A stretch of 63,173 nt of DNA, filler included, from Chrysochromulina tobinii (Eukaryota), in assembly GCA_001275005.1 (NCBI GenBank). It is 9 parts of 9 records of this genome, joined end to end, with 100 filler letters (N's around TTAATTAATTAA, not from the genome) between each part and the next. Parts side by side here need not be neighbours in the genome. Positions count along the whole stretch, not along the records: positions 24,028 to 31,684 come from JWZX01000103.1; 8 more parts are not named here. One strand, written 5' to 3'. A model generated the notes under the pieces. It had not been told where the DNA came from and made no database searches. It saw only the letters and a list, made by a program, of their open reading frames with translations. Numbering within the stretch: the stretch's first letter is position 1; each line of letters starts with the position of its first letter. Made by a program: the position numbers and the translations under genes. Positions 5,839-59,579 of this stretch are shown piece after piece.

Positions 5839-6634
5839 CTGACTTTGAAGACACTCGATCGACACGATGGAAAGGCGGGAGCACGGCCGGGGGATGCGGT
5901 GACGCCAGCGGCGCAGCGGTGTGCCCGCAGCGCAGGATATCTCTCTTATCTCATTACAGCTGACTCGCAGCTGTTCAGCTCGTAATTTTTTCCATTTTAC
6001 TACGTGTAGTACGAATTTTGATGCTGCTGTATATGTTGTATATGTGGTGTATTATTTTTTTGCTGCTGTAAATGTGAAGTACCTTTTTGTGACGAGGTGG
6101 CAGACGTCGAGAGGCGAAGCCGCCGAAGGGGCCCTGAGACGGGACGTGGAGAGACCCACCGCCCGGCCCCGCCCAGCGGGGACCGGGGGGTGTGCTTCCT
6201 GAGGGTTAAAAAAGGGTCTAGGCGCTAGCGGTGTAGCGCATAAATTCCATCTGCGTTCAGCCTGTCTCAAGTCCATCTGTCATCACCGCACGTCGGGGTT
6301 ATCGGGTTAATCGCACGCGGGCCGACCATGGACCATGCCGCATGCGCGACCAACGCCGCCCAGGCAGGGTACTACATGTCCACTCCCACACGACACGAAC
6401 GACGTAGTCTCATAGCAAAACGCACGGAAAGACAGTCTCCTGGTACTGCACTCTCACAGCAAACTGGAAATAGCACGCATCATGTGCAGCCCATGAGCAC
6501 CCTACCCCCGGACCGGACGGGGACGTCTCGTACGCTGCTGGACGTTAGTACAGATGCTATGCTCCTCGCCGCTCCGGGATGATACACTGATACACATGCA
6601 TGCAGCGTAGCACTGCGCCTTTCAGCCGCGGCGC

Positions 6635-7393
6635 CTACTCAATGCGTGGAATCAAGCTCCTCCGCGCCTGCTCGGGCGAGACTGGCTTAGACTCAGCCGC
6701 CTCAAGCTTGGCGAGGAAAGCATCGCGCGGCGGCGGCGAGCTCTTAGTGCTCTCCGCGGCGGCCTTGAACAGAGCTTGTTGCTCTGTCATGTACTCATTC
6801 TTGTACTTCGGCTTAGGGGGCGGTGTGACCGCCTTGGCCACCTTGAGCGCTGCCGAGAAGCCGGTGGAGACCGGCACTGGAATCTGCGGGCTGGAGCGCA
6901 GGTTTTTGATGATCTTGGTCGACTCATCCAGCGGGATGCTCGGGCCGTCCTTGCCGTCGTAGGTGCGCACAGCGGTCGGGTTGGTCCACGGCTGGAACAG
7001 CTTCGTGCCCTCGGCCACGGGCTTACCCTTCTGGAAGTAGGAGACCAGGAGGCTGTCCGATTCGGCGTCCGTGAACTGCCCTCGGCCATGGCGCTTGGCG
7101 TCGCAGTATTCACCCACGTATGTCTCTCCGCTCGGGTAGCGCTCCACAGCTCGCCCAGAGTAGCCCTGCTTAAAGTTGGTGACCACCCGGATGCGACCCT
7201 GGTCGTCTACAACCTTGAATGCACCTGGCAACCCTTCCTCCTGGTCGTAACGCGCTTCGAACATGGATGAAGGCATGCCAGGTTTCTTCTTGGCGAGGGT
7301 ATCCGCTGTTGGCGCCACCAGAGGTGCGGGGGCGTCACCCACTTCGCGGCCCTGCCACATGCAGCCGCCGGAGCGGGTCATGTGAGGCATCAT
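6635..7393 (-). CDS. MORN-repeat-containing protein
   Basis: Repeat signature YSGRAVERYPSGETYVGEYCDAKRHGRGQF. Start codon uncertain; ATG 7393 chosen. Confidence 0.6.
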   Translation of the reverse strand: MMPHMTRSGGCMWQGREVGDAPAPLVAPTADTLAKKKPGMPSSMFEARYDQEEGLPGAFKVVDDQGRIRVVTNFKQGYSGRAVERYPSGETYVGEYCDAKRHGRGQFTDAESDSLLVSYFQKGKPVAEGTKLFQPWTNPTAVRTYDGKDGPSIPLDESTKIIKNLRSSPQIPVPVSTGFSAALKVAKAVTPPPKPKYKNEYMTEQQALFKAAAESTKSSPPPRDAFLAKLEAAESKPVSPEQARRSLIPRIE

Positions 7394-8279
7394 GACTGCG
7401 CAGCGAGGGTCTGTCGGGCCGCAGGATTCAACATGGTCAACTTTCGAAACAACTTTGAAACAACTTTTCTTCCTGCGCATCCGAGGCAGCCGAGACGGCG
7501 GCCGGCGCACTGGCGGACGAGGGGAAGGCGGCAGCTTGGTGCGTGGTCTGGGCGTCGCCGAGGGTGCGGATGAGCGCGGGCAGCAGCCCGAGAGCGCGTG
7601 GCTCGCTCAGCCGGCAGAGCATCTCGCACGCGGAGCGCACGCTCGGCCTCAGCTGCCGGATGAGGGCATCCAGGCCCACCCCCACCTCTGGGCTCATGTA
7701 CGGAAAACTGAGCATGATAGCCGCGCACAGGAGCCGTTGCATCTGGGCGAGTGTCGAGGTCGACTGCCGCGGCACCACGAGCGACTGGACGCCGCGCAGG
7801 CCCTTGATTTCACGCTGAGCCGAATGTTCGCCGACTGTAGCATGGCCTCGAGGCCGCGCGAGCGGCCGGGCGCGAGCGGCAAGGACGACATCGTCATCGA
7901 TTTGGAAATGTTTCGTCGTTACGTGATCTCCGCGCCTCCTCGCAACAATCTTAAAGTCTAACAGTACTACAACAATCTCTAAGACTTACTGTACTACGGA
8001 CGGCAGCTCACCAGATCAACAGGCCAGATCTCACGACCTCTCGCCACCCCGCTCCCGTAGCCTCTTGGCGCGCTGACCCAACGGCTCCGAATCCTCATCC
8101 GACTCCCATGATCCCCCCTGCCCCTCACCCAGCCGAGCATGATCGTCCCCCTGGCCTTCCAGCTGGAACCCCGCATTCCNNNNNNNNNNNNNNNNNNNNN
8201 NNNNNNNNNNNNNNNNNNNNNNNTTAATTAATTAANNNNNNNNNNNNNNNNNNNNNNNNNNNNNNNNNNNNNNNNNNNN

Positions 8280-9022
8280 CACGGCGACCGCCACCCTCAC
8301 CGCCGCCGCCCACGCCGCCACCGTTGCCCCCACCGTCGCCGCCGCCACCCTCGCCGCCACCCTCGCCGCCGCCCTTGCCGCCGCCACCCTCGCCACCGCC
8401 GGAGCCGCCGCCCTCTCCACCACCTCCCTCGCCGCCGCCCTCGCCGCCCTCGCCGCCATCCGCGCCGCCATCCGCGCCGCCCCTGCCCGCCACTCCTTGG
8501 CTATGGTTTCTGGTTGCCATGTTTCTGTTCTGCCTCGCTGCGCTTGCCTTCTTCGCGTGGGGCGTGTTGCATGCGCGGCGCGGCCGGAGCCTCCGAAGGG
8601 GCCTCCCGCTCTCTTCATGGGCAGGGGGGTGGGCTATCTGGCCGCGGAGTCTCCAGCGAGTCGCACCCGCGGGCAAGTATCAGCCAAGCGTCCAGCACCA
8701 CCTGCACATCTCGAGCGCGCAGCTGCTCTGCGAGACGGGAGGCAGCAGCTATAGGAGCCGTGCGCCAGACTCGGCTGCTTACTCGGCTGCAGGCGGCCCT
8801 GAGCCTCGCATTGAGGGTGCAGGACATGGTACAGGACATGGTACAGGAGCGATTGGAGACGTGCATCCACAGAAGCCTTCGGGCGCTTGTCCGGGCGCGG
8901 GGCGCGCGGCGGCTCTTGAGATGTCGACGGACGCCGCGTCGAACACGAAACCTCCGAGCTGCCGCAGAAACCAGAATGGCCTGGGCCCAGTACCCAGGCT
9001 AAAGGAACATTCTCGTCGTTGA
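8280..9022 (+). CDS. C-terminal part of a proline-rich single-pass membrane protein, 5' truncated
   Basis: SPPP tract, then hydrophobic WLWFLVAMFLFCLAALAFFAWGVL, then basic residues. Confidence 0.55.
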
Positions 9023-23349: not shown

Positions 23350-24027
23350 ATCCGTGACCGAATCGCCTCTAAGCGTGTCTAGGCGTGTACGCTTTACGCG
23401 CTAACGTGGTCCTAGTTCGTGTTCCGAGATTCACCTAGAGCTCCTCCTGAGAGCGCGCTACCCGGGATCGATTAGATGAATTTAACAACTTGACGGATGA
23501 AGCGGCATCTGGGGATCTGCGATCGCCGCGCCGGATCGCGACGCTCCCCGGCGCTCGCCCGGCCGCGCGGGGTCCGGGGACGCTCATGGCTCAACTACAA
23601 CTTCGGATGCCACGCTCGTGGTGTGAATCATAATTTGACGTTTTCGCAAGCTGCTATAAGGATATGGTCCGGTCTAACTACACCGCACAGCCTCAGGCTG
23701 TCCGACACCGACTCCGTGCTCTGGCACACATCAGCACGATCGCACGCAATCGCGTATATCGGCCGTTACACATCACACATGCGACACGCTTTGCCCAGAG
23801 CGCCGCTTGCGCTCTCAAGCCATCTCGCGGACGAGATGTTTAGAAGATGGTGGGGGGGGCGGCGCCGCCGAGGCCGCCGGTCGGGTAGAGGGCGTCGACG
23901 CCGAGGAGCTCGTGGACGAGGCAGCCGNNNNNNNNNNNNNNNNNNNNNNNNNNNNNNNNNNNNNNNNNNNNTTAATTAATTAANNNNNNNNNNNNNNNNN
24001 NNNNNNNNNNNNNNNNNNNNNNNNNNN

Positions 24028-24263
24028 CCAACGATGATGTGGACGATGATGTGGACTATTGGGCGCTTCCAAACGACAAGCGTCATAATCCCAATCGCTA
24101 CGGGTGGGACCCGGATCAGGGCTATCTTTACCATACTCCACCAGCTCAACAAACACCGTCCATTCTTGGCACAGCTCACGCGCAACACTCTGGAACAGTG
24201 TACGACCTCGATGATGACGACGATGATGGTGACATACCTTTGGTGTTCCGTAGGCGACGATAA
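24028..24263 (+). CDS. Acidic C-terminal fragment of a putative viral protein, 5' truncated
   Basis: Frame is open from the contig start (NDDVDDDVDYWALP...) to TAA 24263, 21 nt before the next ATG. Confidence 0.5.
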
Positions 24264-24284
24264 TTCTAAGCTTCCAGGTAAACG

Positions 24285-26135
24285 ATGTTGACCGGTTTGT
24301 TCAAAGGACGACAAAGCATTGAAGTTGGTGGGCCAATCGGATCGATGAAAGACGCGAAATCGAAAAGCTTGGCGAACCCCGACTACAAGGCGGCGTATCT
24401 GCTAAAACGCTTGACGGGTTACGAACCAGATTCGAATCCGGGACTTGACATGACGATCGACCGGTACAGACCGGAAGATAGCCGGCCATGGATGGATCAG
24501 GCTGAAAAGACCGCATTTCTTATGAACGCGGTCAAGGGCTACGAAGCGGAAGCCGAGGAGTCTTTAAAACTGGAGTTCAAAGATTGGTTAAGAGGCGAGC
24601 ACAACGATAACAACGATCCACAACCCTACAATAATGCACATGGTGGGTTGAAACGCAGAGACACGCGTGGTGAACAACTGGATGAGTGGTACCCGACGTG
24701 GTGGGGTAAGAAGCAGTTAACGCACCTCCCAGGCGTTCGAGAATATCTGCGCGAGGATCACATCTCGGCGGACAAAGCCTCGTTTGACATGAACATGCTC
24801 GCGCACTTCGGCCCGAGCAACCTCGAGGAGGCATGGGCATACTTCAAGTATTGGGTCAAGCGTCGGCCGGTTGGGCCGTGGATTAGACTGAATGAGCCCG
24901 ACGCTTCTGCTAATGCTAATACACCCTTTGAACGTTCGGGTCCAATCTCGATGGCTCCTGCAGATGCGGTTCTGAACATTGAGACAAACGCCAGAGGTAT
25001 CAAGAAGGTGCAGATGCCCGAGTTGGCGCGTCGCGAGGCAGGCAATACCTCTCTTTTGGATCGCGCCTTGACGCAAGCTGTCAAGGAATCAGCTGCCTTA
25101 CGAAACACAGAAGAAGCGGACAGGCTTCGAAAGGAAGCTGATGCTCTTGATGCTGCAGACAAGCAGAAAGAAGCAGAAATACTCGAAGCTCTGAAACGTG
25201 CAGATCCATTTAAGACCAAGTATGCGAAAGAGATGTTCGATGACGGTTACTTTGAGCCACACATGAAATCCTTGCAACAAGAGTATAAAAACACTGTGGC
25301 ACAGAAAGCTAAATCAGAGCCGGAAGTGTTGTGGCGCAAGTTGATGGCAAACAACGATAGGCAATTCACACGAGAGGAGTATAATCGAGTTCAAAACTAT
25401 ACTGGAATGACAACAGAAGCTCCACTTCAAGCTCGAATGGATCAGTTGATGGCAATCAAGGGCGTCTCACCAAAGATGAAGGAGCTCATCGGAGATCTCT
25501 TAAAGGACAGATTCAATTTTAAGGGTTCATACGCCGATCATTATCACCACGATAAACTCTTGCTCAAGCAAACTGATGCATGGCTGAAACAGGCTCAAGT
25601 TGGAATGCAGCTTACGAGACTTCTCACAGACAGAAAAGAAGCAAGGGCTGCATCAGCAGCGGCGCAGGCAGCGGAGCAGGCAGCGGAGCAGGAGGCACGC
25701 GATAAGATTGATGCATTGGTACAGCAAAGAGTGGATGCGATTCTGCGAAAAAGGGGACTATTGGAAGACGGAGATGATGTCGCGGAGGTAGATGAAAAGC
25801 GCGTGGACGAGGCGGAGGTAGAAGAGCGCGTAGCCGAGGTTCTTGAAAGCGTTCTTCAACGTGTCGCGGAGGTAGAAGAAGAAGACGAGGAGGAGGGAGA
25901 AGAAGTGGAAATTTTCGGCGAAAGAGGCGTCTTGCAAAGCACACCTGGCAAAGCTGCAGCCGATTCTAGTCCCACTGACACCTCGACAACCCTAGAAGTA
26001 TCACCTGCATCACCTGCCGTTACTCGCATGAACGAGCCAGCTCCCAGCAAGCCAACAATGAAGTTCAATGTAGCAGCTAGAGCCGTATCATCACCTAACG
26101 AACCTCGACGTCCAAAACCAGCCACAGGCCGCTAG
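24285..26135 (+). CDS. Putative viral protein, 616 aa, with a globular N-terminal domain and a coiled-coil/acidic tail
   Basis: Long ORF preceded by TTCTAAG (24264-24270). Motif QLTHLPGVREYL...GPSNLEEAWAYFKYWV. Confidence 0.75.
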   Translation: MLTGLFKGRQSIEVGGPIGSMKDAKSKSLANPDYKAAYLLKRLTGYEPDSNPGLDMTIDRYRPEDSRPWMDQAEKTAFLMNAVKGYEAEAEESLKLEFKDWLRGEHNDNNDPQPYNNAHGGLKRRDTRGEQLDEWYPTWWGKKQLTHLPGVREYLREDHISADKASFDMNMLAHFGPSNLEEAWAYFKYWVKRRPVGPWIRLNEPDASANANTPFERSGPISMAPADAVLNIETNARGIKKVQMPELARREAGNTSLLDRALTQAVKESAALRNTEEADRLRKEADALDAADKQKEAEILEALKRADPFKTKYAKEMFDDGYFEPHMKSLQQEYKNTVAQKAKSEPEVLWRKLMANNDRQFTREEYNRVQNYTGMTTEAPLQARMDQLMAIKGVSPKMKELIGDLLKDRFNFKGSYADHYHHDKLLLKQTDAWLKQAQVGMQLTRLLTDRKEARAASAAAQAAEQAAEQEARDKIDALVQQRVDAILRKRGLLEDGDDVAEVDEKRVDEAEVEERVAEVLESVLQRVAEVEEEDEEEGEEVEIFGERGVLQSTPGKAAADSSPTDTSTTLEVSPASPAVTRMNEPAPSKPTMKFNVAARAVSSPNEPRRPKPATGR

Positions 26136-26197
26136 AGCACATACGCCAAATGCACGCCGCTATTCGCTTTAAATTCTAGAGCACATGCAGCTTGCGC

Positions 26198-26344
26198 ATG
26201 GGCGTCGAGCACGTGTACGTCGTCTACGATCCGACTCGCCCCGTCAACCGCTTCGATCTCGGGTTCCGCAAAGTCTCGAAGATGATCGAGCTGACTCATT
26301 ACGAGGTCTTCCAGCCATTGCAGGTCACGGTCGTCAATTTGTGA
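26198..26344 (+). CDS. 48-aa ORF absent from the ORF track; candidate N-terminal part of a penton/minor capsid jelly roll
   Basis: MGVEHVYVVYDPTRPVNRFDLGFRKVSKMIELTHYEVFQPLQVTVVNL*. Codons end mostly in G/C and TTCTAG lies upstream at 26174-26179. Confidence 0.55.
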   Translation: MGVEHVYVVYDPTRPVNRFDLGFRKVSKMIELTHYEVFQPLQVTVVNL

Positions 26345-26379
26345 TGGGGACATGACATCTTCTAAGCATGTATTGAACC

Positions 26380-27195
26380 ATGTCGTCCCAACAACCCATC
26401 GAAGTGAAGCTCGCTCCGGGACTCCTGACCACACTGCGCGGTCCAAGGTGTTCTCTTGCAGCAGGTGAGGTGGTCAGCACTGGTAATTCTGTTCTGTTGC
26501 TTCCACTGTGGAGTGGCGCGAATGATGCTTTTGTCATCAACAACAAAGATACTGAAGGCGTCGACTTTGCGTTACTGTTCGACGTGACTACGGGTAAGTT
26601 CATCTTTCCTTTGGCATGTGTGCACAGTGAAGTGAGTGCTAGCAACGGGTTGCCTGTCGAATTGATCGGGTTTTGGACGGACAAGTTTCCGTCAGCTGCG
26701 CCTGAAGACCTGCTCACCGCGGTGTTCACATTGGTTGTGAAGAATGGCACTGAGCAGGCGTACTCCTCAGTGACGATACACCGACTACCGACGACAGTTG
26801 TCGTGGGCAATGTTACGGAACGACCAGGCACTCCGGAACAAGACCCTCCAGGCACTTCACTTACATTGACTGGTGCTTCTGTTGTAGAGAACATTAACAA
26901 TGGCTTTCCAACCATCGCCTCTAATACGCCCGTGGTCATTACACCCACCTTTCCCAGTGGCCACAGCGCTGTTTTCACTGTAACTGGCTACAATTGGGAC
27001 CAGACCGTAGAGATTGAAAACCCAGTCTACAGTTGGGAAATAGGTGCAGGCTTTACGGTGGTCTCTGGAACGCCATACACTTTGACGATCGGACCACAGA
27101 GTTTTAATCGAACACGTGTGTTCGTCACCATGATTGTCACGAGTCCTGATGGTGAAACTACGACTCTGATTGAAATGGTCATCGTGGAGACTTAA
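26380..27195 (+). CDS. Beta-rich putative virion spike or insertion-domain protein, 271 aa
   Basis: Thr/Val/Gly/Pro-rich alternating beta pattern with very few Lys/Arg. TTCTAAG at 26360-26366. Confidence 0.65.
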   Translation: MSSQQPIEVKLAPGLLTTLRGPRCSLAAGEVVSTGNSVLLLPLWSGANDAFVINNKDTEGVDFALLFDVTTGKFIFPLACVHSEVSASNGLPVELIGFWTDKFPSAAPEDLLTAVFTLVVKNGTEQAYSSVTIHRLPTTVVVGNVTERPGTPEQDPPGTSLTLTGASVVENINNGFPTIASNTPVVITPTFPSGHSAVFTVTGYNWDQTVEIENPVYSWEIGAGFTVVSGTPYTLTIGPQSFNRTRVFVTMIVTSPDGETTTLIEMVIVET

Positions 27196-27252
27196 GGAGT
27201 CACGACAAGCTTGATCGAACCTAAGATCCATAATTTCTTAACGCCGTATTAA

Positions 27253-27588
27253 ATGGCAGCGGCTAATAACTCGTCAGGAAGCACTGGAACAGAACCGGCA
27301 GAACCGACCTTCTTAAGCATCGACGAGATTGAGGGCAACTTCACGATCATCGTGTACAACAACGAGACGCATCAGACGCTTCGTGAAAAGGTCTTCTGTG
27401 TACTTGGCAATCCGACAAATCATCAACCGGTGCACACACTCCCCTTCAACCCACGACACATCTCATCCCTGACGCTGCAGCTGCGTAAGTACAACAAGGA
27501 GACGAACACGTACGAGAAGTACAACGGCCCGAAGGTCGGACTCTGGTTCAAGATCGTGACCGACGATTGCTCTGGCTCAAATTCATGA
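27253..27588 (+). CDS. Minor capsid (penton)-like single jelly-roll protein, C-terminal strands
   Basis: FLSIDEIEG...FCVL...FNPRHISSLTLQLRKY...YNG...LWFKIVT resembles the C-terminal pattern I recall for PLV and NCLDV pentons. Confidence 0.65.
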   Translation: MAAANNSSGSTGTEPAEPTFLSIDEIEGNFTIIVYNNETHQTLREKVFCVLGNPTNHQPVHTLPFNPRHISSLTLQLRKYNKETNTYEKYNGPKVGLWFKIVTDDCSGSNS

Positions 27589-27628
27589 TCGACGACTCTT
27601 GTATTTTCCGAGTGCCTGAGGAGCAACG

Positions 27629-28558
27629 ATGGCTACGAGAGCACCCGGTCCCGTGCCTGCAGGCCTTCAGCTCGCACCAATGAATAAGACCGACCCGACG
27701 ATGCAAACTAAGCTCGGTAGTGATCTCGATCACTTGCGGCAAACTTACCATGAGCCTTCGTATGGAAGAGACGCAAATGATACGTATACTGGGTATGTGG
27801 CTAACGGTATGGATCCAGACAAGGCTCAGACACTGCCTCAATGGTACCCCCGCGGCCTGACGCACATGCCAGTACAGTACGGCGGGCCATCGGCGGAGAA
27901 GGAGAACATGGACCGCCTGAATCAACTGATCGAGGTGGCGCCCAAGGGTGCGGGTGGTGCGATGCGGTACGCGCCGATTGGGGACAAGGAGGTCAACTAC
28001 CTCAAGTACATGGAGGACATGGCCGAGCTCGCAAAGTTCGACAACTACGTCGAGTCTTTTGTCGATCCAAGGCAGCCCGGCAGTGCCGAGTTTTTGTTCA
28101 AGGTCTACCCGGAGTACATTAACCGGCGCATGCAGCAGGCGCACACGGATTATGAGTTTGCACTGCGGAATCAGATGATTGACATGTGGGGCATTAACAC
28201 CTTCGACGACCTGTACTTTAAGTATTTGGTGGACCAGAAGAGGATCAGCGGTCCATCGCTACAACGTGCGGCGACTACCATTGACGACGAGTACGTCGGG
28301 GCGTACCTTGCACCCTGGAGCCATCCGAGGAAAAAGGTTGATGCAGAACATTTGTACCTCCCCTTCGCGTCCGCAAAGATTGGAGCAAAGCCAACTAATC
28401 AAAACGATTGGCGAATCGAACGCAAGGCCAATATGCCATTCAGGCACTCACAGACCCGGCAGCAATTGGCTCATTCAGTTTTCACGAAAGCGCCAGGACT
28501 TAACTCTGACGGGACGCCAAACACTAATCTGCCTGGTGATGGCAAGGGCACTGCATAA
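27629..28558 (+). CDS. Putative viral protein, 309 aa
   Basis: Clean ORF. Motif PEYINRR...WGINTFDDLYFKYLV. Variant upstream motif TTCCGAG. Confidence 0.75.
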   Translation: MATRAPGPVPAGLQLAPMNKTDPTMQTKLGSDLDHLRQTYHEPSYGRDANDTYTGYVANGMDPDKAQTLPQWYPRGLTHMPVQYGGPSAEKENMDRLNQLIEVAPKGAGGAMRYAPIGDKEVNYLKYMEDMAELAKFDNYVESFVDPRQPGSAEFLFKVYPEYINRRMQQAHTDYEFALRNQMIDMWGINTFDDLYFKYLVDQKRISGPSLQRAATTIDDEYVGAYLAPWSHPRKKVDAEHLYLPFASAKIGAKPTNQNDWRIERKANMPFRHSQTRQQLAHSVFTKAPGLNSDGTPNTNLPGDGKGTA

Positions 28559-28584
28559 ATATTCTAAGTACATTCTAGTGTACC

Positions 28585-28845
28585 ATGTCGGCCCCGGCAG
28601 TTCAGATCGAAGGGTGGCGTGGCGTGCTCGTTGTGTGCGGGCTCGGGCATCCGCTCGCGCGCGCGTTCGTCGCGGGCACGCTCGTCGGTGTCGTCGCGTT
28701 CACGGCGGGCCTGCCCAGGTCGGCGTTCACAGAGGACGGGCACTTGCGCCCGCAAGCCGGGCTGTCGAGCGACCCTGAAGCGTGCGACTATCATTTTCTA
28801 GTGGTTCCATTGAGTGTCGCGCTAGTCGTCGGGCTCTTCACATGA
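28585..28845 (+). CDS. Small two-TM putative viral membrane protein
   Basis: Two hydrophobic helices flank P..AFTEDG.LRP, similar to the P.F.F..DG..R motif of small NCLDV membrane proteins. TTCTAAG at 28562-28568. Confidence 0.7.
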   Translation: MSAPAVQIEGWRGVLVVCGLGHPLARAFVAGTLVGVVAFTAGLPRSAFTEDGHLRPQAGLSSDPEACDYHFLVVPLSVALVVGLFT

Positions 28846-29168
28846 GCAGCGTCGGCGAGTTTGTTAAGAGCAAGATGCACAACATGGCCGTCTGGGTGCA
28901 GGAGGAGCTCGGCTCGGTCATCGCGATCGACTACGTCGCGGCGGTCGACGCGCGCTCGGAGCTCGAGCTCACGACGCTGTGCGTGATGCTGCACACTGAG
29001 AGGGACATCGCAGCGCGGCGTGATTGGGACGCGCTCGTCGAGCTCGCAAGTGAGGAAGCCGCGCTCGCGCCGCTGCTGCAGATCCTCGTTGAGGTGCGCC
29101 AGCGCGAGCCGATGCACGAGAAGTTTTGGAAGTATGTGCAGCTGTTCATCGACGTGATCGATGAGTGA
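28842..29168 (+). CDS. Small helical putative viral protein, 108 aa
   Basis: ATGA overlap with the upstream gene at 28842-28845. C-terminal KFWKYVQLF motif. Confidence 0.7.
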   Translation: MSSVGEFVKSKMHNMAVWVQEELGSVIAIDYVAAVDARSELELTTLCVMLHTERDIAARRDWDALVELASEEAALAPLLQILVEVRQREPMHEKFWKYVQLFIDVIDE

Positions 29169-29199
29169 TTAGTTTCTAAGTGTCGAGTGTGTGTCAGCA

Positions 29200-29604
29200 A
29201 TGCCTGAAATTTATGATCCACTGAACCTCATCGAGCTCGACCCGGTGATGCTCAGCGCCGCGCAGGAGGAGCGCGCGGCGCTCAAGAAGACGAAGGGGGG
29301 CGCTGGTCCGTCGAAGGACAAAGCGCCCACCGAACCCAAAGAACTTAAGAAGCAGAAGGAGGTCGTCGCGGCGATGGAGTCGACGCCGCAGGAGCTGCCG
29401 CCGCCGCCCTCGCCCGAGGAGCTGCGTGTGATGCTCGACAAGATCGGCGCGTATAAGGAGCGCTTCCCGAACCTAAAGTCGCGCAACAAGGTCGGGCCGA
29501 AGAGCTCGCCCGAGGAGATTGAGGACGAGCTACACTACATTCAGCTGCAGCTCGGCACTAGCACGCAGAGCGGCAACTTTGGCAGAGCACTACGACTCGA
29601 TTGA
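29200..29604 (+). CDS. Putative viral protein, probably C-terminally truncated
   Basis: TTCTAAG at 29174-29180. Motif LDKIGAYKERFP...SSPEEIEDELHYI. The frame ends shortly after an apparent junction near 29582. Confidence 0.6.
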   Translation: MPEIYDPLNLIELDPVMLSAAQEERAALKKTKGGAGPSKDKAPTEPKELKKQKEVVAAMESTPQELPPPPSPEELRVMLDKIGAYKERFPNLKSRNKVGPKSSPEEIEDELHYIQLQLGTSTQSGNFGRALRLD

Positions 29605-30070
29605 CAACTACATCGACCACGACTGCTACACTCAGTATCTCGATCCCTTCGGAACAGCGCCGTGGGTGCGCGACGGGGATCACAAGCATCTAGAGGCGCG
29701 CGACCGTGGACGCGCTGTCCGCGAGAAGCAGCTCAATGTCCTCTTGCCCATGGTAGCGGCGGCATCTGAAATGGAGGCCGATCTCTATGTCCCAAGCGTT
29801 GCCGAGGTGGAGAAACTCCCCAAGTTCTCATCGCATGTGGGGATTGGCAATTGGGGCTGCGACACGTGGCGAGGGGCTCTGCGAGACGTACGAGGGGTCG
29901 GGGCTCTGCCGATCCTGAATCAGACGATACGGGATGAGGAATTTCCCCAGAAGGACAAGGGCCAGGTGGCTCGCGAGGTGCATCAGGAGAACTTCTACGT
30001 TTCGCGCGTTTTCGACCGAAGCGGCGCGCCAGACCACGGTAGATACTGTGCACCAGGGGCCACAGAATGA
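29582..30070 (+). pseudogene. Start-less coding segment (AEHYDSIDNY...APGATE*), a remnant of another viral gene
   Basis: Coding-like codon usage in the +1 frame, with no ATG or upstream motif at its 5' end. Confidence 0.5.
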
Positions 30071-30118
30071 GCATAGTAACACACGAACCTTAGAACTTTC
30101 TAGAGGTGTTAACGAGCA

Positions 30119-30400
30119 ATGGACGACTTGGAATCGGAGCTGGCGCGGAGTGTTTCTGCACAGGTGAGTAAAACATTCATAGAGACACGGCCGCTCCTGG
30201 CACTCGGTGTTCTGGTACTTCTCATTGGAGCCTACGAGATGCGTAAGCACGTCCCAAAGCAGCCACACAGCCGCAGCGCCGTCGTGCACGCTGCGGACGA
30301 CCTCGAGATCGGGCGCCACAGGCACGACGGCTCACAGCCGACGGCCGACCGCGTTCGACCGGGCCATCGCAAGACCATCACGTGGGACGCTAGGCTATAG
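30119..30400 (+). CDS. Small single-TM putative viral protein, 93 aa
   Basis: TTCTAG at 30098-30103 and a hydrophobic segment PLLALGVLVLLIGAY. Confidence 0.65.
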   Translation: MDDLESELARSVSAQVSKTFIETRPLLALGVLVLLIGAYEMRKHVPKQPHSRSAVVHAADDLEIGRHRHDGSQPTADRVRPGHRKTITWDARL

Positions 30401-30813
30401 AAGCTGAACGTCTATGAGACCTTCGTAGTGACTCTCTCCGTTGTACACGATGTAGATGACATCGGCTGTCGGCCCTCCAAGTGGGTTCATCCTTTTTGGC
30501 TCTTCCATGCGGAACAGGTTTTCAGGGTCGTCGTCGTCGTCGGGGGTTAGTTTGGGTCAAGCGCACATATAACAATTCCACAAACCCGATTCGTTAACAT
30601 GAACTCCGATGGGATTTCGAAACCACAGATTCCTTTTGGATGACCATCACGACGCGAGCGTTCCACAGCATGACCGCTCCAGGGCGCGTGACTTCGACGT
30701 GAACCATGCAAAGGGCCTGGTCTGACGTCGCTTATGGCGCCAATGGATTCTCCAGCCTTTCGTTCACATCCCCACGAACTTTGGACTCCCCAAACGACGA
30801 GGCAGCCCCCCAA
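30395..30813 (-). pseudogene. Frameshifted remnant with an OTU-like cysteine protease C-terminal motif
   Basis: Minus strand 30550-30395 reads LTPDDDDDPENLFRMEEPKRMNPLGGPTADVIYIVYNGESHYEGLIDVQLL*. It is one base out of frame with the upstream ORF 30547-30813. Confidence 0.4.
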
Positions 30814-31306
30814 AATGAAGCATTTCGAGCCTGCTTTTAGATTTACCTAGCCGCGTGTTTTTAGATTTATCGTGTGTTTTTAGATTTACTGCTTTGCACC
30901 TGCGGTGCATATCTTCGGCTATGTATGCCAGGTCGGTTGCACTTTCTGTGCGCGTCACCCTTGTGTTCACCCGGCACATCTGTACGTGCTTGATCCCCTC
31001 TGCGGCACCATTGATTGCTAGTCGGGTAGTACAAGGTCTCAGACGACGCGATGCGATGACCTCTACGGAGCAGTCGTGTTAATCCGCTGTGCATCATTGT
31101 CCGGCACTTTCTGTGCGTTTGTCACCCTCCTGTTTGCACTTTACGTGCATTGACTGCGAGTCGGGAAGTTGCTTTTAACCAGCTCAGCTCACACACACAA
31201 CGAATTTTCTGCATCGCGTAAACAGTGATTGGGTATTCGTGCGCGCCGCGGGTCCGGGTGACGCCGCGCGACAATTTCACACGCCGCCGCGACAATTTCA
31301 CAGCCA

Positions 31307-31684
31307 ATGTTTAGAATTCGACACCCAAGACACCGGACCGGCGTACATACGGATGCGGTTATTTCACACTCCCCAAACGATGGCGAGTGTGCCGAGGCCG
31401 AGGGCTCTTACTCGGTCGCCGTGCATGGCCGCTGCATGATTGCGCACTCTTTCGAGGGCGAGTGCTTCGGGCCCGCGCAGGCGCTGCACGGCTGCACGTA
31501 CGTCGTCGACGCCATCGTCGAGGGTCCCAGGCTCCAAACGGGCGCAAACTACCTCGTCGACTTTTGCCCTGCGGAGCGCGCCTTGCATGTCGCTCTCGGG
31601 TGCTACCGTGAGCGCAACCTCGACGAGCTCGTTGAGTTCGCGGGCGAGAACACGATGTGCGAGCGCGTCGCGAGGGCCGTGTGG
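31307..31684 (+). CDS. 6-pyruvoyl-tetrahydropterin synthase / QueD-like protein, partial and possibly degenerate
   Basis: YSVAV...MIAHSF.GE.FGPAQALHG.TYVVD...NLDE..EFAGENT..E. Truncated by the gap, and the 5' end is unclear. Confidence 0.75.
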
Positions 31685-32184
31685 NNNNNNNNNNNNNNNN
31701 NNNNNNNNNNNNNNNNNNNNNNNNNNNNTTAATTAATTAANNNNNNNNNNNNNNNNNNNNNNNNNNNNNNNNNNNNNNNNNNNNGTATCTCTGTCGTCGT
31801 TGTCTCGCCGCTGCCTCTGCCGTCCTTGCGAGTGATGCGCTTTTTTCAATCATGCCGATCAACTGCGGTCCGATCTTGATTTCTTCCGTTAGCCTGCCTG
31901 TCGCAGTTCTCGCGTCGGCGATGTGCGGTATCTTTGGTTTGCGCGGTCCCGTCCTGTGGCTCCTGGCTGGTCTCGTCGTATGTGGCGACCCTGTTCCTTC
32001 TGCGCGCTCCGGCCAGGACCGCTGCAACGGGCCCGCTTGCCCCACTCGTCGGCGCTGTTGCGCGCGCCGCACGTTCTGGCGCCGTGTTGGTTAACTACGT
32101 CCGTGAACAACGCCCCCTAACATCCCCAATAGTATGCGGGCCTCACCCTCATCCTCTGTCACCCAAAGTGCAAAGACGTTGCTA

Positions 32185-58322: not shown

Positions 58323-58822
58323 ATTGACGCCTGCTTTCAGATGAGTTACGTGTATGTGAAAGTCGAGACTCACGCACGTCCGGCCGCGCGCAGCAAGCGC
58401 GCCGCGGCCGCGGTAGCGACGCTCGGGACACATTGGTTTCCGAGGGATATTTTCAGCACCGGTCTCGACAACAGCTCATGATCCGAGATGATGGTAAGTA
58501 AGTTGCAACATTCAGTCAGTCTACAGTCAGTAATTGTTTTGCGGCCGCACACACTCGTCACTCCGATTCGGGAGACGGGGGTTGGGACGGGCTTCGGCAC
58601 TCCTCTCTCCAATTGCCTCTCTCCTCGTCTCCTGGCGTCAAATACGCGCCTGGCGCGTGGCGGCAAGTACGACGATCAGTACGGGTTGTGTGACATTACA
58701 GGGGGGAAAATGTAATTTCAAGCTTCGGACTCTCGGAATCCTACACATCTTGGCCTTGGGGGCCTTGGGGCCAGGATTCATGGAATTTGGAATCTGAGCC
58801 AAGGTAAAGGTATAGCGAGTTT

Positions 58823-59281
58823 GCAAATAAGCGCTGGGGGCCGGAAGTGGAATCGGGAATTTCGGAATCCTGGGTTTGCAAGGAGCGTTGGGGGGCGGAA
58901 GTGTAATCGGGAATTTCGGAATCCTGGGTTTGCAAGGAGCTCTGGGGGCCGGAAGTGTAATCGGGAATTTCGGAATCCTGGGTTTGCAAGGAGCGCTGGG
59001 GGCCGGAAGTGGAATTGGGAATTTCGGAATCCTGGGTTTGCAAGGAGCGCTGTGGGCCAGAAGTGGAATCGGGAATTTCGGAATCCTGGGTTTGCAAGGA
59101 GCGCTGGGGGCCGGAAGTGGAAACGGGAATTTCGGAATCCTGGGTTTGCAAGGAGCGCTGGGGGGCGGAAGTGGAATCGGGAATTTCGGAATCCTGGGTT
59201 TGCAAGTAATGCAAGGAGCTCTGGGGGCCGGAAGTGGAATCGGGAATTTCGGAATCCTGGGTTTGCAGGGAGCGCTGGGGC
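58823..59281 (+). repeat. 54-bp tandem minisatellite, eight full copies plus a partial one (left arm of a foldback structure)
   Basis: Unit GCAAGGAGCGCTGGGGGCCGGAAGTGGAATCGGGAATTTCGGAATCCTGGGTTT starts at 58823, 58878, 58932, 58986, 59040, 59094, 59148 and 59211. Confidence 0.95.
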
Positions 59282-59579
59282 CAAGGGGGGGCTGGGACGT
59301 GCAAGGTTGCCCCCCCCCTCCCCCCCCAAAGCGCTGCGCGCCGCGCCGCGCTCCGCGCGCACCCAGCAAACCGCCGCGTAACGCCGCTCCACCTGTGGTC
59401 ACAGGGTCCATGTGCACCTTGCATACTTAATTTAGGCGCTCGCCTCGTCTTCCGCGTGACGCCGCACGCTACCTGTCACCTGTGGTTGGGCTCACGCCTA
59501 ACTCGTGGTTAGGCTCCCGCCTAACTCGTGGTTCCGTACGTTTTTACTAACCATTATAATAAAAAAAAAACTTAACCCC

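Follow-up and report, generated by a model that had tools for sequence, protein, structure and literature searches.

Evidence for a penton divided between two genes in a gamadvirus-like element of Chrysochromulina tobinii, with a putative exchangeable vertex gene between the halves

In a gamadvirus-like element of Chrysochromulina tobinii (assembly GCA_001275005.1), the single-jelly-roll penton is encoded by two separate genes, and we hold with high confidence that this split is real and maintained by selection. The window, that is, the whole 63,173-nt stretch of DNA analyzed (nine joined parts of the assembly, filler included), carries on a 7.6-kb contig (24028-31684) of a GC-rich eukaryotic genome a block of three ORFs, in which a 48-aa and a 111-aa ORF, the two penton halves, flank a 271-aa middle gene (Table 1). 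Taken as a whole, the mechanism that we consider probable is one in which the split penton would reassemble and exchangeable outer domains would be attached at the cut site, the middle gene likely providing one of them. Few parts of the PRD1-adenovirus-giant virus lineage are as conserved as the penton jelly roll, which is regarded as a domain made of one chain. A single clade has the penton here whole, cut, re-fused and circularly permuted, which amounts to a natural series for the fission-fusion route by which a capsid protein becomes circularly permuted. These architectures provide a testable route by which small algal and protist viruses could vary their attachment proteins, explain why annotation misses short penton fragments, and suggest a natural split tag for cargo display on capsid vertices.

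Table 1. Features of the element and of the three-ORF block, with positions counted along the window
Feature	Position	Strand	Basis or remarks
Gamadvirus-like element fragment	24028..31250	+	Right end enters GC-rich host-like DNA; from contig limits, L008 identity, genes in common with L002/L003 and GC profile
TTCT upstream motif, first half	26173..26179	+	
Penton first half, 48 aa	26198..26344	+	Strands B, C and D plus a short extra strand; matches fusion residues 1-40
TTCT upstream motif, middle gene	26357..26366	+	
Middle gene, 271 aa	26380..27195	+	N-terminal peptide, Ig/PKD-like head, second Ig-like domain
Optional C-terminal Ig-like module of the middle gene	26826..27195	+	Absent in 22 of 23 aligned homologues
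TTCT upstream motif, second half	27233..27241	+	
Penton second half, 111 aa	27253..27588	+	Strands E-I; 33 homologues
309-aa virion-cluster gene	27629..28558	+	Marks the penton locus; comes next after one or both penton genes in 16 of the 18 loci

All three ORFs were found where the first-pass annotation had placed them, each with its own ATG and stop codon, and its claim of a separate TTCT motif for each was confirmed, with a TTCT core lying about 19-25 nt upstream of all three. The two half ORFs are in different frames and 908 nt apart. Among 41 hand-picked gene starts from 12 loci, the pattern [AT]TTC[CT] was present at −12 to −32 in 34 (versus 7.3% of random positions) and TTC[CT][ACG] at −15 to −32 in 37 (versus 8.3%), both patterns having been set post hoc on data already seen; the middle gene fits only the latter pattern and the 111-aa gene only the former. 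The upstream TTC-type motif is a genuine trait of this virus group. All three ORFs recur at 100% protein identity in L008 and L009, which belong to two other assemblies possibly sharing a source with the window, and further samples contain the two half proteins (P0034 and P0001) at 93-98% identity with identical ends. The three-ORF arrangement is therefore not an assembly error. Pfam searches returned no family above cut-off for any of the three ORFs (48, 271 and 111 aa).

Homologues of the 111-aa protein provide the link between the two halves. Three of the 33 are fusions that start with the 48-aa sequence and four carry that sequence at their C-terminus, in permuted order; the 48-aa ORF aligns with residues 1-40 of the natural fusions. 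Fusion P0025 is 71% identical to P0034, which is one residue off the 48-aa ORF, and 59% identical to the 111-aa ORF. Its model (pLDDT 70, pTM 0.67) consists of three strands, a low-confidence loop at residues 40-48, where the junction lies, and the remaining strands. Comparison of this fold with 48,161 chains gave viral capsid chains for all of the top six matches (Z 10.9 to 7.9; next row 6.9). The best was 6ncl_a6 of PBCV-1 (Z 10.9, rmsd 3.0, 123 aligned), and further matches were 8rbt_S (Z 10.2), 8h2i_bG (9.5), 8hif_y3 (8.7), the mavirus penton 6g41_A (8.0) and Sputnik 3j26_N (7.9). Judged by length and range against excerpts of PMC7019647 and PMC9617893, the matched PBCV-1 chains would be P1 and P1v1. 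Foldseek, which the first-pass annotation had proposed to run, again put the PBCV-1 chain on top, with moderate values (TM 0.42, E 3e-4). The fusion fold gave TM 0.5-0.6 against large-DNA-virus proteins and, in the Atlas, 0.97 to Nucleocytoviricota clusters and 0.95 to a cluster of whose members 19% have V18-19. Alignments A4 and A3, searched against PDB sequences, returned chance-level rows only and none to solved pentons, and by profile the intact L002 gene was matched weakly (E 9e-4, probability 23%). In viral-contig scans, A2 and A5 gave no locus and the L002 gene gave itself only.

The break between the halves falls after the third model strand, in the D-E loop (strand labels B-I were assigned in the present analysis). 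Excerpts of PMC6048507 describe this loop as the exposed insertion site of the mavirus and Sputnik pentons, and in the consulted part of PMC9617893 the D-E insertion (crown) of PBCV-1 P1v1 holds the spike. The earlier proposal that the first ORF supplies about three N-terminal strands and the third about five C-terminal ones is thus borne out by the natural fusions and the P0025 model, and the middle gene does sit where an insertion domain had been expected. The proposal also holds in that the 48-aa ORF has homologues and the natural fusions fold as one domain. According to the models, the halves belong to one eight-strand single-jelly-roll penton, nearest to known pentons, and the natural fusions lead us to predict that the 48-aa and 111-aa chains reassemble. 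A complex prediction of the first half, the second half and residues 1-150 of the middle protein as partner gave no usable signal for or against binding (score 0.00, alignments unused, partner fold uncertain).

The first-pass annotation had compared this block with virophage and PLV pentons, but the gene content and order of its relatives show a different virus group. Homologues of the 309-aa neighbour occur on six viral contigs that have up to five window genes in common. Among the relatives' genes are those that, from their motifs, we take to encode an NCLDV-like major capsid protein, an ATPase, VLTF3, RuvC and a PDDEXK nuclease. The capsid protein, ATPase, VLTF3 and RuvC genes are located on L001/L003 and on L002 (five window genes in common), and none is on the 7.6-kb contig of the window; in place of a virophage or PLV capsid set, the relatives have a gamadvirus-like one. 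The order in L002 is SSB, ATPase, VLTF3 and an intact 154-aa penton-like gene, directly followed by homologues of the 309-, 86- and 108-aa genes. This order agrees with Table 1 of PMC11253617, cited here from excerpts, in which PEV_22, the minor capsid protein of gamadviruses, has the position of the 154-aa gene. The cluster mCP, Mriya_51, Mriya_50, PEV_20 and Mriya_48 has an identical order in the window and in L002/L003, these names being given by order against that table rather than by alignment to reference proteins, and the 309-aa gene is by its place likely Mriya_51. The agreement of the L002 gene order with the published one points to a gamadvirus-like element (mriyavirus) in which the split genes would occupy the penton slot. 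Gamadvirus hosts known so far are haptophytes, as far as the excerpted literature goes. On L003, a capsid-like gene of 838 aa (6081-8597) has a central insertion of more than 250 aa relative to the 557-aa gene of L002, and it lies on one contig with the permuted, tailed penton of L001.

The window contig is 100% identical to part of L008, and as L008 continues into a host-like gene, the element appears to be integrated in the host genome. The passage into a GC-rich host-like gene, which goes on in L008, is seen at 31250-31685 of the window and 9000-9795 of L008 and is likely the integration junction. The host-like gene at this right edge presumably resembles a pterin synthase. Downstream of the penton block, a 134-aa gene (29200-29604) stops early in comparison with its 225-aa homologue in L003, similarity of the window to L018 breaks between 29583 and 29724, and the window copy was probably deleted or rearranged within 29200-30070.

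Second halves were found in 18 loci, 17 from one scan and 1 from another. When these relatives were searched for fused and split forms, as had been suggested, the second half turned out to be its own gene in 15, fused in one (L022) and permuted in two (L001 and L024). The order of the window, first half-middle-second half, was observed in seven loci, of which L008 and L009 equal the window, L013, L014 and L015 are near-copies, L018 has a first half lacking a start, and L020 is the last. Four others (L010, L011, L019 and L021) have the middle gene followed by the second half, their upstream part being cut off, three (L016, L017 and L023) have adjacent halves without the middle gene, and L012 has the second half alone. 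Profile hits to 137 of about 159 sequences comprised 61 with the second half only, 18 with the first half only, 21 with the first half plus a tail, 14 fused and 23 permuted, counts that include near-duplicates and some contig-end fragments and are biased by search length windows. A full-database profile search yielded 43 proteins, about half of which match the first 40 positions only; in these proteins, which reach 751 aa, the first half precedes a Pro/Ala or acidic linker and one to several Ig-like repeats, or else collagen and a head. Permuted genes end after strand D, some with tails at that point (P0082, L001). An extra strand after D was observed in 11 of 18 bare first halves, 20 of 23 permuted proteins, 1 of 21 tailed first halves and none of the 14 fused proteins. 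In L024, two divergent permuted penton genes lie back to back on opposite strands (179-601 on the minus strand and 666-1109 on the plus strand).

Values of dN/dS were 0.23-0.36 for the first half against four relatives (0.04-0.36 over 11 pairs) and 0.24-0.36 for the second half against eight relatives (0.09-0.74 over 36 pairs), and both are thus under purifying selection. In the second-half tree, a short one of 68 rows and 95 columns whose bootstrap did not converge and whose root is unreliable, the fused forms require 5 changes, of which strong branches force at least 3, and the permuted forms require 4 (at least 3); architecture states are interleaved and their order is not given by the tree. 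Several fusions retain at the junction the start Met or leader of a free-standing second half, a feature that suggests re-fusion after the split.

Two readings would remove the need for a working two-gene penton. One is that the penton gene has decayed, broken by insertion in an endogenous virus. The seeming integration of the element and the truncated gene downstream would fit such decay, but diverged relatives (about 60% identity) have the identical break point, the halves have separate upstream motifs, the dN/dS of the first half is low (0.04-0.36), and fused and permuted forms recur. The split state across loci and purifying selection largely refute decay, to which we give almost no credence; the shared break point, the motifs of their own and the selection acting on both halves uphold instead the earlier view of an evolved split as opposed to random decay. 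The other reading is that the halves are exons, and that removal of a 941-nt intron holding the middle gene restores an ordinary one-chain penton. The first-pass annotation was wrong in stating that no frame-compatible GT-AG pair joins the halves: one in-frame pair exists in the window, from 26341 to 27281 (941 nt), and four of five other split loci have some in-frame pair. Transcription by the host is also likely, on general grounds and from the description of mriyaviruses as polymerase-less in the consulted part of PMC11253617. Against splicing, the acceptor of the window pair is weak and purine-rich, the pairs of the other loci are located elsewhere and have acceptors without a pyrimidine tract, L017 has none (0), the halves of L016 and L017 are only 24 nt apart, and the second half is equipped with a separate motif and ATG. 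Splicing would also leave permuted genes and long-tailed first halves unexplained, and we regard it as very improbable.

We now turn to the gene that lies inside the split. Searched with the L018 protein, the middle protein has 17 homologues, mostly of 157-168 aa, built of a conserved N-terminal peptide, an optional collagen stalk and a variable head (about residues 20-145). The stalk stands between peptide and head in L013, L019 and L021, and that of L013 matches Pfam PF01391 above cut-off (E 1.3e-8). Head models (pLDDT about 80-90) have generic Ig/PKD matches (Z 7-8.5), and no TNF/C1q-type head was found among the best 50 matches listed for the middle-protein fold; in the Atlas, the best value was 0.82, which we take as a lead only. 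In place of the C-terminal Ig-like module of the window, homologue P0090 has a different extension, a domain that also occurs in a cargo gene of Ig repeats (E 1e-9). The head that P0121 carries on a first half bears a weak resemblance to the middle head (E 0.005-0.007).

The middle gene is the most variable of the locus, with dN/dS of 0.18-0.68 and, in one close pair, 1.6 on 16 changes. Identities between the window and L018 are 79% for the first half, 94% for the middle gene and 61% for both the second half and the next gene, while those between L018 and L020 are 98, 67, 94 and 94%, respectively. This discordance with the flanks agrees with the exchangeable middle gene proposed earlier and indicates, from alignments, a mosaic gene exchanged between lineages. 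L020 backs the pairing of the flanks, and an assembly chimera is therefore unlikely, with the caveat of co-occurring copies. In runs X1, X11 and X16, over window positions 25600-28600, DNA of window-, L013- and L018-type elements is present together, and these coexisting elements have near-identical middle-gene blocks in common. In X16, one contig skips the C-terminal Ig-like module and another has it behind a different head. Coexistence of element types in one DNA run would be a setting for recombination of the middle gene.

These observations are compatible with a model in which strands B-C-D would slot into strands E-I as a two-chain protomer, five of which would make the vertex. A cut in the D-E loop, or the permuted order E-I-B-D, would leave the chain with an open C-terminus behind strand D, at the outer face, and this end could take cargo of any length, as a tail need not return to strand E in the way that an insertion must. 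Since strand D gains a free end by either route, we infer that an open outer end may be the purpose. With a bare first half, as in the window, the cargo would be a separate protein, the product of the middle gene, docking likely by its conserved N-terminal peptide and presenting its variable Ig/PKD head for host attachment. We favour, with modest confidence, this role of putative vertex spike or fibre for the middle protein. More tentatively, and with somewhat less than even confidence, vertices might be of a plug-in kind, assembled by natural fragment complementation in which a shared five-strand half is completed by varied three-strand halves. If so, tails consisting of nothing, of Ig repeats or of collagen and a head would give mixed pentons in a single virus, and host-binding gear would be changed by the swap of a 40-residue tag. 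The gene row of L016, with an Ig-repeat gene homologous to first-half tails (start off contig), a bare first half and one second half, hints at such a system. In L010 (1-390) and L011 (1-325), which are nearest when second halves are compared (95%), the gene before the middle gene starts off contig and closes with a Pro-Ala linker followed by an Ig-like domain resembling first-half tails.

The role of the middle gene and the uniqueness of the split penton both have competing explanations. The penton could be split as described and the middle gene be a neighbour in a late structural cluster, coding for some other surface or secreted protein with no binding to the vertex. The generic nature of the Ig/PKD fold speaks for this, as does the optional character of the gene, which is missing in four loci where both halves are seen (L016, L017, L023 and L022). 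On the contrary, in each of the 11 loci in which it was detected, the middle gene immediately precedes the second half, its product has a peptide-stalk-head build with collagen in L013, L019 and L021, and it has domain types in common with first-half tails; a mere neighbour seems rather unlikely to us. It is also conceivable, and in our judgement improbable, that another part of the genome holds an intact penton gene, the halves then serving as an accessory variant of the vertex or associating with other partners. No locus examined is a whole genome, only 7.6-11.6 kb of element being visible, L024 has two penton-like genes, and partial accounts give some related viruses two pentons. However, the split genes stand in place of the single intact gene of L002 and of PEV_22 as published in the consulted part of the literature, and among 25 loci only L024 has a second copy.

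Set beside known systems, the split penton that we favour is closest in virus group to PEV_22 of the Gamadviridae, by gene content and order and by a vertex protein beside Mriya_51/Mriya_50. In the excerpts of PMC11253617, PEV_22 is a typical protein with a single jelly roll and is recorded for 20 of the 21 gamadvirus rows, whereas the window has two genes; the word "split" is absent from the text of two supplements of that paper. Mavirus and Sputnik pentons and PBCV-1 P1v1 are alike in having a single jelly roll with a variable exposed D-E part (excerpts of PMC6048507 and PMC9617893), but their insertion is continuous in one chain, whereas in the window group the chain is cut, with a tail or an independent protein as outer domain. 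In the tectivirus P5/P31 vertex, as described in part of PMC6750898, a penton-like anchor with a collagen stalk and a head for host recognition is mixed with bare subunits within one pentamer. Tailed first halves would be comparable to this anchor-collagen-head subunit P5, except that the P5 anchor is a whole jelly-roll domain (same excerpts of PMC6750898) and that here only three strands would complete a shared five-strand partner. The adenovirus fibre, a separate protein that docks on the penton by its N-terminal tail (PMC6750898, in part), could by analogy be a model for the middle gene. The Ig/PKD-like models of the middle head differ from that fibre, and docking is proposed here by analogy. 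The adenovirus penton base is one chain. The one-polypeptide jelly roll, a feature of known pentons, is replaced in the window by two ORFs. Our literature search, which covered few subscription papers and no bioRxiv supplements, turned up neither a split nor a permuted penton. None is described in the consulted parts of PMC4028283, in which "split" refers to broken Polinton genes, nor in those of 10.1101/2022.07.28.501842, 10.64898/2026.06.19.733378 and 10.1101/2022.05.25.493380.

Elsewhere in the window, the 100-letter joins at 23928-24027 and 31685-31784, and six more, consist of N runs flanking a fixed 12-base linker, and genes on opposite sides of a linker are non-neighbours. A tandem repeat with a unit of about 54 bases, open on both strands, extends over 58638-59424.
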